Shown one piece after another: positions 2,803 to 44,601 of a stretch of DNA of 64,000 nucleotides. Below the pieces are notes generated by a model. That model saw only the letters and a program-made list of their open reading frames with translations. It was not told the DNA's origin and made no database searches. Position numbers and translations under genes: made by a program. The DNA comes from Octopus vulgaris (taxonomy: Eukaryota): contig OX597824.1 in the NCBI GenBank assembly GCA_951406725.2, positions 27,528,001-27,592,000 on the forward strand, written 5' to 3'. Every line of letters begins with the position of its first letter. The stretch's first letter is position 1.

Positions 2803-3620
2803 CATGCTTATATATATATACGCGTGTGTGTGTGTGTTTGTGGACGTGTGTCTATCTCTCTCTATATATATATCTATATTATATATATATCAATATATAT
2901 ATATATATACACCGATACCGAAAAAGTTACACAAGCGAAAAATATATTCAAAGCAACATGTACAAAATATTAATTTTCAACGGAGGAAAAAAAAAGAAGA
3001 AAAAAAACTGAAACCAGAGTATGATGCAAATTGTTAACAAAAAATATCCGAAAGACAAGTAAAAAAAAAAATAACAAAACTACAAAATACAAAATAATAT
3101 TAATAATAATTATTATTAGTAGAGAAAAAAATGGAAGATGAAACTACGGATAAGGTAGCAATCAACATTTTTGTTAATACATCCCCATAGTTATTATTGT
3201 GTATACAGTTATATATACATGTCACAAATATATATACTCGTGTGTTTGCACTTCATTATTTTTTTATGTATATTGATGTAGTTGATTTGCGTAGAAATAT
3301 ATATATGTGTACAATCGCAAACGAATATACACTTTCACGGGCGTGCACACACGTACACTCTCATACCCACCTAAAAAATACGCATGTACGCGCACACATA
3401 TACGTGATTGGGGATTTGCTGTTGTTGAAGTATGTGTGGGTCTGTGTGCGTGTTTGTATTGTATGGGTGTGTATGTATGTGGACGTCTGTGTATGTGTGT
3501 GGTGTGTGTGTATGTGTGTGGTGTGTGTGTGTGTGTTCATACGTAAATGAGGAAGTAAATACATACGTTTATTTATACAATATGTATGTATATACATGTT
3601 TATATATATAAATATATATA

Positions 3621-5725: not shown

Positions 5726-5951
5726 GAAATATTAAAATTACTAAGTCTCTCTAAAAGAGAACAACGGCAGCGTTTCCGGAAAATAATAGTTATCGCCATA
5801 CTAATATGGCATTCTTATAAAAATAAGAATAAAGCTGTCCGCTTATTAGCTCCACGAGGCCATCGCCTTAAGTTAGCTATTTGATACACAAACTGTATCC
5901 ATATAACCTTCGAACAAGGGAGGTCAGTCGCTCCACACTACTTGACCGGCA

Positions 5952-5993
5952 GCTACAGACGCGTTTCGGAGTATTGCCCCTTTTCAATGCAGC
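5952..5993 (-). ncRNA. Minimal type I hammerhead ribozyme, variant core UUGAAAA
   Basis: Minus strand: gctgca-TTGAAAA-gggg caata ctcc-GAAA-c gc GTC-tgtagc; 6-bp stem I, 4-bp stem II, palindromic ACGCGT stem III. Confidence 0.7.
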
Positions 5994-6097
5994 GTAGCCA
6001 GACCAGTAGGTGTCGCTTCTGACAATCTCTGTTCGAAGGTTTTATTTACCTAGCTTCGGTAGAATACATCCACTTGTTTTCAATAATAGAAATATAC

Positions 6098-42585: not shown

Positions 42586-42646
<61 letters not shown>

Positions 42647-42795
42647 GTATATAAGCATATTTCTATATATATATATACATACATGCGTGCATATATATTA
42701 TGGTATGGTTCTTTCACATGCATGTATATACCCACACATATACACATATGCATATCTATCCACCCTCTTTCTAACTACCTATGTTCTTCTTTACG

Positions 42796-42827
<32 letters not shown>

Positions 42828-42831
42828 TACA

Positions 42832-42865
<34 letters not shown>

Positions 42866-43042
42866 TTGTATATAAGAAAAAGGGACTGGCAAAACAGGTT
42901 GCTTGACCGCATACCGAAAAAATAGAAATAGCAGTCAAGAATGCTTATTTCTATCAAAGTTGGACTCCGGGCATGACAGACCCTGTAATTCACATATGCA
43001 AAACAGAAGGAATAGATAACGAATACGAAGTCTGGCGGTTAT

Positions 43043-43153
43043 CTGTGAACATCATGTTTCTGGATTATAAACATATTGAATATATATTCCATATATTTTT
43101 GATATATATTTCATATATATTGCATATATATTTCACATCCTTCTTCAGCACAG
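43043..43153 (-). ncRNA. Type I hammerhead ribozyme (mirror copy)
   Basis: Reverse complement of 43777-43887. Confidence 0.75.
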
Positions 43154-43776
43154 CTTTCCATTGAAAAAGATTTATCATAGATTTATCAAATGCTACGTAC
43201 CTCAAACCTTCTGACCATGCGACATCAAAATATTTGAAGAAAGTGAGCAAAGGCTAAACCTACATAGACGTTTGAATTCATAAATCTTCCCTCCAAAATT
43301 TTGCCATGCGCACTACAAAAATAGTTCCGTAAGATGGGGAACAATTAGGTTGTCAAAGGGAATGAAAAATCCAAATAGTAATATAATGATAAGAGTAAAT
43401 AATTTCTATAAAGGCTTTTAAAAAAACCCCAATTATTTACTGGTAGAATTCGGTATGTAAATATAGCCGATTACCGGCAGGAACTTCTGTAAAGTTCAGT
43501 ATATATATTGTATATAAGAAAAAGGGACAATTTACTCTTATCATTATATTACTATTTGGATTTTTCACTCCCTTTGACAACCTAATTGTTCCCCATCTTA
43601 CGGAACTATTTTTGTAGTGCGCATGGCAAAATTTTGGAGGGAAGATTTATGAATTCAAACGTCTATGTAGGTTTAGCCTTTGCTCACTTTCTTCAAATAT
43701 TTTGATGTCGCATGGTCAGAAGGTTTGAGGTACGTAGCATTTGATAAATCTATGATAAATCTTTTTCAATGGAAAG

Positions 43777-43887
43777 CTGTGCTGAAGAAGGATGTGAAAT
43801 ATATATGCAATATATATGAAATATATATCAAAAATATATGGAATATATATTCAATATGTTTATAATCCAGAAACATGATGTTCACAG
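43777..43887 (+). ncRNA. Type I hammerhead ribozyme with long AT-rich loop II
   Basis: ctgtg-CTGAAGA-a ggat [about 70-nt AT-rich loop] atcc a-GAAA-ca tga t GTT-cacag; perfect 5-bp stem I; predicted cleavage after 43882. Confidence 0.75.
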
Positions 43888-44302
43888 ATAACCGCCAGAC
43901 TTCGTATTCGTTATCTATTCCTTCTGTTTTGCATATGTGAATTACAGGGTCTGTCATGCCCGGAGTCCAACTTTGATAGAAATAAGCATTCTTGACTGCT
44001 ATTTCTATTTTTTCGGTATGCGGTCAAGCAACCTGTTTTGCCTGTCCCTTTTTCTTATATACAATATATATACTGAACTTTACAGAAGTTCCTGCCGGTA
44101 ATCGGCTATATTTACATACCGAATTCTACCAGTAAATAATTGGGGTTTTTTTAAAAGCCTTTATAGAAATTATTTACTCTTATCATTATATTACTATTTG
44201 GATTTTTCATTCCCTTTGACAACCTAATTGTTCCCCATCTTACGGAACTATTTTTGTAGTGCGCATGGCAAAATTTTGGAGGGAAGATTTATGAATTCAA
44301 AC

Positions 44303-44375
<73 letters not shown>

Positions 44376-44544
44376 AGCATATTTCTATATATATATATAC
44401 ATACATGCGTGCATATATATTATGGTATGGTTCTTTCACATGCATGTATATACCCACACATATACACATATGCATATCTATCCACCCTCTTTCTAACTAC
44501 CTATCTTCTTCTTTACGTATATATATATATATACACACACACAC

Positions 44545-44601
<57 letters not shown>

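Follow-up and report, generated by a model that had tools for sequence, protein, structure and literature searches.

A dispersed non-coding 642-nt hammerhead family in Octopus vulgaris with the insertion anatomy of PLEs

Two head-to-head arms occupy positions 42858 to 44311 of the window, by which we mean the whole 64,000-nt stretch of Octopus vulgaris DNA analyzed here. Very probably they belong to a young, dispersed, non-coding 642-nt non-LTR retrozyme, for whose insertion into TA microsatellites a coding Penelope-like element (PLE) likely supplied the enzyme. We judge the 642-nt family to be a new non-LTR retrozyme family and a non-autonomous PLE passenger, not a new kind of element. The earlier note on this DNA had read the locus as retrozyme-like, reverse-transcribed, more than unit length and very recent, and we judge this reading right. 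For animal retrozymes, mobilization by PLEs via circular RNA has been proposed from co-occurrence and pLTR homology. The 642-nt family adds evidence from insertion sites, namely a PLE signature on a hammerhead tandem at hundreds of young sites, with an intact candidate enzyme alongside. Its start sites are mapped and it provides a substrate of modest length, so that both the circularity of the template and the making of the inverted arm become directly testable.

Layout of the window insertion and its hammerhead

Numbering the unit so that phase 1 is 44073 and phase 642 is 44072, we delineated the following features.

42858..43529, minus strand: inverted arm, 672 nt (1.05 periods), 5′ end at phase 613; its outer 3′ end, at phase 642, is a common fixed site and adjoins (TA)n
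43530..44311, plus strand: direct arm, 782 nt (1.22 periods), 5′ end at phase 100; its outer 3′ end, at phase 239, is a rarer site whose last bases merge with TA and which adjoins (TA)n
43776..43888, plus strand: type I hammerhead of the right arm, phases 346-458; predicted cut 43882/43883 (phase 452/453)
43042..43154, minus strand: type I hammerhead of the left arm, sequence as in the right arm, coordinates by phase; predicted cut 43048/43047
43794..43864, plus strand: 71-nt loop II of 11-nt AT-rich repeats, whose predicted pairing forms a long extension of stem II
44073..44191, plus strand: 119-nt "tail" between the two fixed 3′ ends of the family (phase 642 = 44072, phase 119 = 44191)
42590..42857, plus strand: left-hand copy of the duplicated flank (~270 bp), probably a long duplication of the target site bounded by a pair of TA tracts
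44312..44577, plus strand: right copy of the flank duplication, starting with a TA run

The arms meet at 43529/43530 with a gap of 0 and an overlap of 0, and their 5′ starts fall at unequal phases. This agrees with the earlier note, which had described inverted arms making 1.05 and 1.2 passes through the unit at differing phases, near-identity between copies and the lack of an ORF. The left arm matches the unit at 670/672 positions, and outside the TA end the two arms differ by 2 substitutions. The longest ATG frame within the unit is 63 aa, no RT or GIY-YIG ORF was found in it, and its best tblastn match to the PLE proteins of the genome has an E of ~7. The unit is non-coding and without LTR structure (a check separate from PBS and PPT), with a GC content below 45-50%. 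The direct arm continues beyond the second fixed 3′ site (phase 119), and 3′ ends at phase 239 recur in L013 and L042.

Overlooked in the earlier note were the (TA)n in which both outer ends lie and the direct duplication of the flank. The flank copies are ~97% identical (97.4%; 96.9% over 287 nt), and a 29-mer inside the duplication occurs genome-wide only at its two copies. The likely origin of the duplication is a pair of nicks in separate TA tracts, spaced ~270 bp from each other; alternatively, the tandem duplication is older and the insertion took place at its joint. We considered a long flank duplication as a trait of the family and rejected it, since it occurs in 1/83 insertions, in a test to which short duplications within TA are invisible.

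The single hammerhead per unit that the note had recognized is borne out by motif, fold and comparison, and the AT-rich loop II that it had put at ~70 nt is real. In the right arm, stem I is formed by CUGUG/CACAG, the core CUGAAGA lies at 43782-43788 and GAAA at 43870-43873; an A.A mismatch is found at the base of stem II, and stem III is near-palindromic. The 126-nt stretch around the hammerhead folds alone into a three-way junction (z -2.67; 1/200 shuffles equal), and the whole 642-nt unit folds better than 20/20 shuffles (z -4.36). Rfam gave 0 matches in the window at the gathering threshold and so adds nothing to these three lines of evidence for the hammerhead, namely motif, fold and comparison. 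Pairing of stem III is predicted for the dimer (-6.4 kcal/mol) but not for the isolated 9-mer. The hammerhead is spanned by 106 family segments with few changes, and no indel occurs at the predicted cut itself. The core is intact, and self-cleavage of the monomer or dimer is its predicted activity. The mismatch at the base of stem II, which has also been described for an axolotl motif, may weaken cleavage.

Family copies and the ends of their insertions

We searched the genome (2.8 Gb in 227 contigs) and found 446 matches to an exact 27-mer of the hammerhead, 444 to a second exact 21-mer of the unit and 254 to an exact pattern of phase-119 ends joined to TA; controls gave 0. The family consists of hundreds of dispersed copies on several contigs, with unit lengths of 616, 642 or 644 nt. 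The mapped sample comprised 80 genomic stretches and the window, covering the listed 27-mer and 21-mer places on contigs 1 and 2, some of the corresponding places on contigs 3 and 4, a single one on contig 28 and one flank. It holds 83 insertions of at least 100 nt, of which 54 contain both orientations. We kept 134 arms and left out 12 short, rearranged or window-cut segments and anything under 25 nt.

The outer 3′ ends of the 134 arms fall at phase 115-125 in 68 cases and at 631-642 in 35, with 31 scattered. The two fixed sites lie 119 nt apart, and the inner 5′ ends are variable. Nearly all mapped 3′ ends are followed by (TA)n, and the 3′ ends of the family finish in TAT/TATA; loop II, the TA-richest part of the unit, contains 0/134 outer ends. 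The earlier note had proposed that random start phases would support a circle. Instead the outer ends are fixed, so the permutation reflects fixed priming with variable 5′ truncation, which is the normal PLE pattern. We discarded random start phases as a circle test, since either template, circle or multimer, would leave the 3′ ends fixed and the 5′ ends variable. The 50 inverted junctions are head-to-head without exception. Exactly one 119-type end is present in 45 of them and two such ends in none; the window insertion is atypical, being among the five that lack one. The arms overlap by 0 nt in 12 junctions, by 1-7 nt in 18 and by 8 or more in 5, and a gap separates them in 15. The family shows the anatomy of a PLE insertion, with fixed 3′ ends, a tail on one arm, an inverted 5′-truncated arm and a microsatellite target.

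Fixed 3′ ends would also be expected if every copy were no more than a terminus (pLTR) of some longer coding PLE, one of the outcomes that the note had named as refuting its reading. A coding PLE family in this genome bears a similar hammerhead, and in L033 and L228 insertions of the 642-nt or a related family sit within the TA tail of a coding PLE. However, arms that extend far enough always re-enter the unit (38/134 are longer than one unit, and none enters an ORF), and the unit has no protein homology. We therefore hold this explanation to be very unlikely and, for the 83 mapped insertions, largely refuted; an ancient origin of the unit from a pLTR is likely. A misassembly or local DNA repair could also have produced the inversion and the repeat, given that the locus lies within microsatellites and that its ~270-bp duplication is unique among the 83 insertions. 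Against this, the 54 insertions with both orientations, on several contigs, share the layout with different junctions, and near-identical unit DNA is present in 16 independent sequencing runs (at least half of its words), which supports the unit and not the junction. All the matches listed are contigs of presumed type, and there is no RNA run among them. An artifact of this kind is exceedingly improbable.

Two loci, L046 (13 units) and L108 (at least 9 units), are long arrays in which variants are shared block-wise among units. In our view these arrays do not demonstrate rolling-circle replication: some substitutions are common to only part of the 13 and 9 units, which argues for expansion at the DNA level, consistent with a retrozyme turning into a satellite. 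In L104, an identical insertion with identical flanks occurs twice, 2781 bp apart (3026-3278 and 5807-6059), from either a local segmental duplication or an assembly duplication.

Template and origin of the inverted arm

Since arms may be longer than one unit, the template was either a circle or an uncleaved multimer. Among passes reaching the cut site, 72/73 run through it (90 arms from 53 loci chosen regardless of hammerhead); together with the lack of indels at the cut, this implies a template that was ligated or uncut and not a cleaved linear monomer. Read-through of the cut site and the haplotype common to both arms make a circular template plausible. Two further observations favor a circle: the many haplotypes that are fixed per insertion (148 variants are fixed along their own insertion, 13 of them locus-private) and the dimer-type stem III. 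The dimer principle for stem III, and circles as templates, have been put forward previously (PMC4209133, in the text available), and RNA circles were found in 3/3 animals tested, according to the accessible part of PMC7229834. A circular RNA stage of the 642-nt element is predicted from these sequence features; some 642-nt RNA circle probably exists, and the chances that the circle is the main template are about even.

The competing possibility is that uncleaved linear multimers of genomic arrays serve as template, with the hammerhead a passenger or RNA trimmer and the arrays regrowing by DNA duplication. Such multimers equally predict read-through of the cut site and would fit the mosaic variants of the 13- and 9-unit arrays and of some short loci (L043, L075, L079, and L109). 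Uncleaved RNA was the dominant substrate of the anole PLE in vitro, which primed without homology to the target (PMC11167929), and self-cleavage was seen in only 1/9 Xenopus retrozyme dimers in the portion of 10.64898/2026.07.22.740005 at hand. In the octopus unit, the possibly weakening mismatch of stem II would point the same way. On the other hand, many distinct haplotypes, each fixed along its insertion, need repeated passage through one monomer, and the hammerhead is retained in a sister family diverged to 62%. The 5′ stops just 3′ of the cut (453-475) are also mildly in excess (10 versus 4.4 expected, p 0.014 uncorrected). We did not accept these stops as a cut-site signal, since the excess is weak, adjacent bins are raised too (9 versus 4.8 at 476-498; 13 versus 7.6 at 351-400) and structure-induced stalling could do likewise; 1 arm has its 5′ end exactly at phase 453. 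We regard multimeric templates as a possibility of rather less than even odds. The mosaic shorter loci, together with 4/41 loci whose arms are discordant at segregating sites, indicate that some templates were heterogeneous.

Comparison of the opposed arms bears on how the inversion arises. At segregating sites, they show 7 differences in 41 loci, versus 105 expected from other loci, and are identical in 37/41 loci (6 of these uninformative). Each of the 13 locus-private substitutions is present in every pass at its locus, and 10 of them extend over both arms. The arms share a haplotype and hence usually derive from one RNA or one source; the 4/41 discordant loci imply that two templates are sometimes used. 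In at least 9/50 inverted insertions (hand count) neither arm is contained in the other, which excludes a simple fold-back there. The absence of second ends from the TA-richest stretch favors defined priming sites over chance annealing. We conclude that both nicked strands prime on RNA and that the two cDNAs are then joined. Twin priming of L1 is a comparable process; the literature searched on it for inverted Penelope copies yielded nothing related. Same-molecule twin priming with abutting arms was considered for L067, L091, and L092 and set aside, as these cases are not clearly above chance (hand count).

The earlier note had invoked a single strand switch, and double priming fits better. 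In its general form, the switch model supposes one priming followed by a strand switch or fold-back onto the nascent cDNA or antisense RNA, with the second outer end set by annealing to TA; the self-priming idea in the available part of PMC3846280 is of this kind. It can draw on the palindromic centres of 5/50 junctions, for which fold-back may account, on near-equal 5′ ends in L037, L064, L080, and L088, on private variants common to both arms and on the many second ends at short TAT words. It is countered by the mutually uncontained arms, which rule out fold-back on the own cDNA though not a switch to antisense RNA, by the 0/134 outer ends in loop II and by the ability of the PLE protein to extend both target strands in vitro (PMC11167929). 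We consider a strand switch unlikely.

For double priming, the following sequence of events can be envisaged. Tandem copies would be transcribed, two hammerheads would pair via stem III and release a monomer, and a host ligase would close the circle. A PLE endonuclease would nick both strands in (TA)n, and each nicked end would prime reverse transcription internally on one RNA, usually at phase 119 and phase 642. Once both cDNAs had halted at variable points, their ends would be joined, which would produce the mirror-image arrangement. We put forward only tentatively that two primers on one circular 642-nt RNA, at structure-defined sites 119 nt apart, roll round it to write each insertion. If this were true, hundreds of copies would record genome-wide how the inverted structures of PLEs arise and how retrozyme circles serve as PLE templates, both so far merely proposed.

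Two further observations concern individual junctions. L031 and L033 are different loci whose inverted junctions nearly coincide (phases 362 and 525/526) and whose long arms measure 853/854 nt, with differing short-arm ends; either the junction arose repeatedly or an inverted structure was copied anew. In L037, L052, L073, L094, L097, and L105, the last few bases of the second arm come from the 620-631 region (CTTATATA) and adjoin a phase lying further upstream, which gives the impression that copying began in that region and then jumped.

Known systems, coding PLEs and sister families

The family resembles metazoan non-LTR retrozymes, as portrayed in the available text of PMC7229834 and 10.64898/2026.07.22.740005, in being a non-coding tandem of low GC without LTR, with one type I hammerhead per unit, and in co-occurring with PLEs. 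The latter source proposes non-LTR retrozymes as non-autonomous PLE derivatives and, in the part at hand, gives consensus lengths of 51-972 bp for 31 vertebrates, three insects and one coral. The 642-nt unit falls within this range and is not unusually long, as the earlier note had thought, although the corresponding part of PMC7229834 gives units of 150-450 bp. It differs from the same retrozymes in exceeding the 170-400-nt circles shown experimentally, in being known from DNA and in its repeat-built loop II. Its mostly dispersed short insertions, inverted arms and mappable ends are absent from the available portions of the retrozyme accounts compared. We found no published account of the family, or of end-mapped PLE-like retrozyme insertions, in a literature coverage that was incomplete and separate from Repbase and Dfam.

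PLE insertions are described, in the available part of PMC8557442, as 5′-truncated partial tandems that often carry at their 5′ end an inverted copy, likewise 5′-truncated; one end has a tail of 30-40 bp, and there is a bias for microsatellites and (TA)n. Nicking and extension of both target strands by a PLE protein have been demonstrated, with two internal start sites on the RNA that bound the tail (PMC11167929). Endonuclease-bearing PLEs thus share with the 642-nt family the partial tandem, the head-to-head inverted 5′-truncated copy, the one-end tail, the (TA)n bias and the two internal starts. By comparison, the 642-nt family lacks an ORF, its tail is 119 nt versus 30-40 nt, and its TAT/TATA ends match the target, whereas the anole PLE primed without such homology. 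Rotifer PLEs have a head-to-head layout with 8-10-bp duplications, and self-priming on antisense RNA was proposed for them (PMC3846280, in the text available); the one duplication of the 642-nt family is ~270 bp. Like Chlamys MRC1 in PMC8557442, as far as the text of that source extends here, the family represents non-coding PLE passengers with multicopy head-to-tail insertions. However, the 3′ ends of the Chlamys non-autonomous PLEs are similar to those of their autonomous partner, and most Chlamys have no hammerhead, while the 642-nt family has a hammerhead and no partner found by homology.

The candidate enzyme for the 642-nt family is a 781-aa PLE with an RT and GIY-YIG frame that is open in many genome copies (L141-L147, L117, and L122; for instance, L144:1244-6460). 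This PLE is young, with a period of 4713 bp, and we infer from the near-identity of its copies that it is active. In both inverted loci examined (L145 and L146), a ~35-nt tail is present on one arm only. A canonical hammerhead core was not found in its pLTR, which contains a sequence with U3/A8 replacing C3/G8 that we take to be a hammerhead look-alike. Upstream of the 781-aa frame, and overlapping it, is a 479-aa frame that resembles no family clearly. Neptune elements with two ORFs have been described (PMC12602865, in part). The coding PLE P0001 has a CX2-5CxxC motif ahead of its C-terminal GIY-YIG, an arrangement that PMC8557442 gives, in its available part, for Neptune and Nematis.

Comparison of the unit with 58 GIY-YIG loci (30 + 8 + 20) yielded no partner of convincing homology. 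The unit scored a weak, gappy 57 against the 781-aa family (shuffle maximum 55) and a weak, gappy 56 against L132 (maximum 52-54), a score that the related L126 did not bear out. The pLTR of the 781-aa PLE contains an 11-nt repeat that resembles loop II; it is of low complexity and situated outside a hammerhead core, and we did not count it as homology. In an older coding PLE family (L148, L209-L216, and L221), the 3′ end contains a compact type I hammerhead. Its core is CUGAAGA, as in the 642-nt unit; stem II is mismatched at its base, and stem III is palindromic. This family has two 3′ ends ~30 nt apart, and several copies carry a change in the core.

A second non-coding hammerhead family (L149-L208), with a ~591-nt unit and 1295-1795 first-look candidates, is 61-63% identical to the 642-nt unit over phases 401-642. 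Its hammerhead is kept with different stems I-III, which argues that the motif is maintained, and it has two 3′ ends ~100 nt apart. A third relative (L228:1750-2047) is ~77% identical to the ~591-nt family and again has the two-end, inverted layout.
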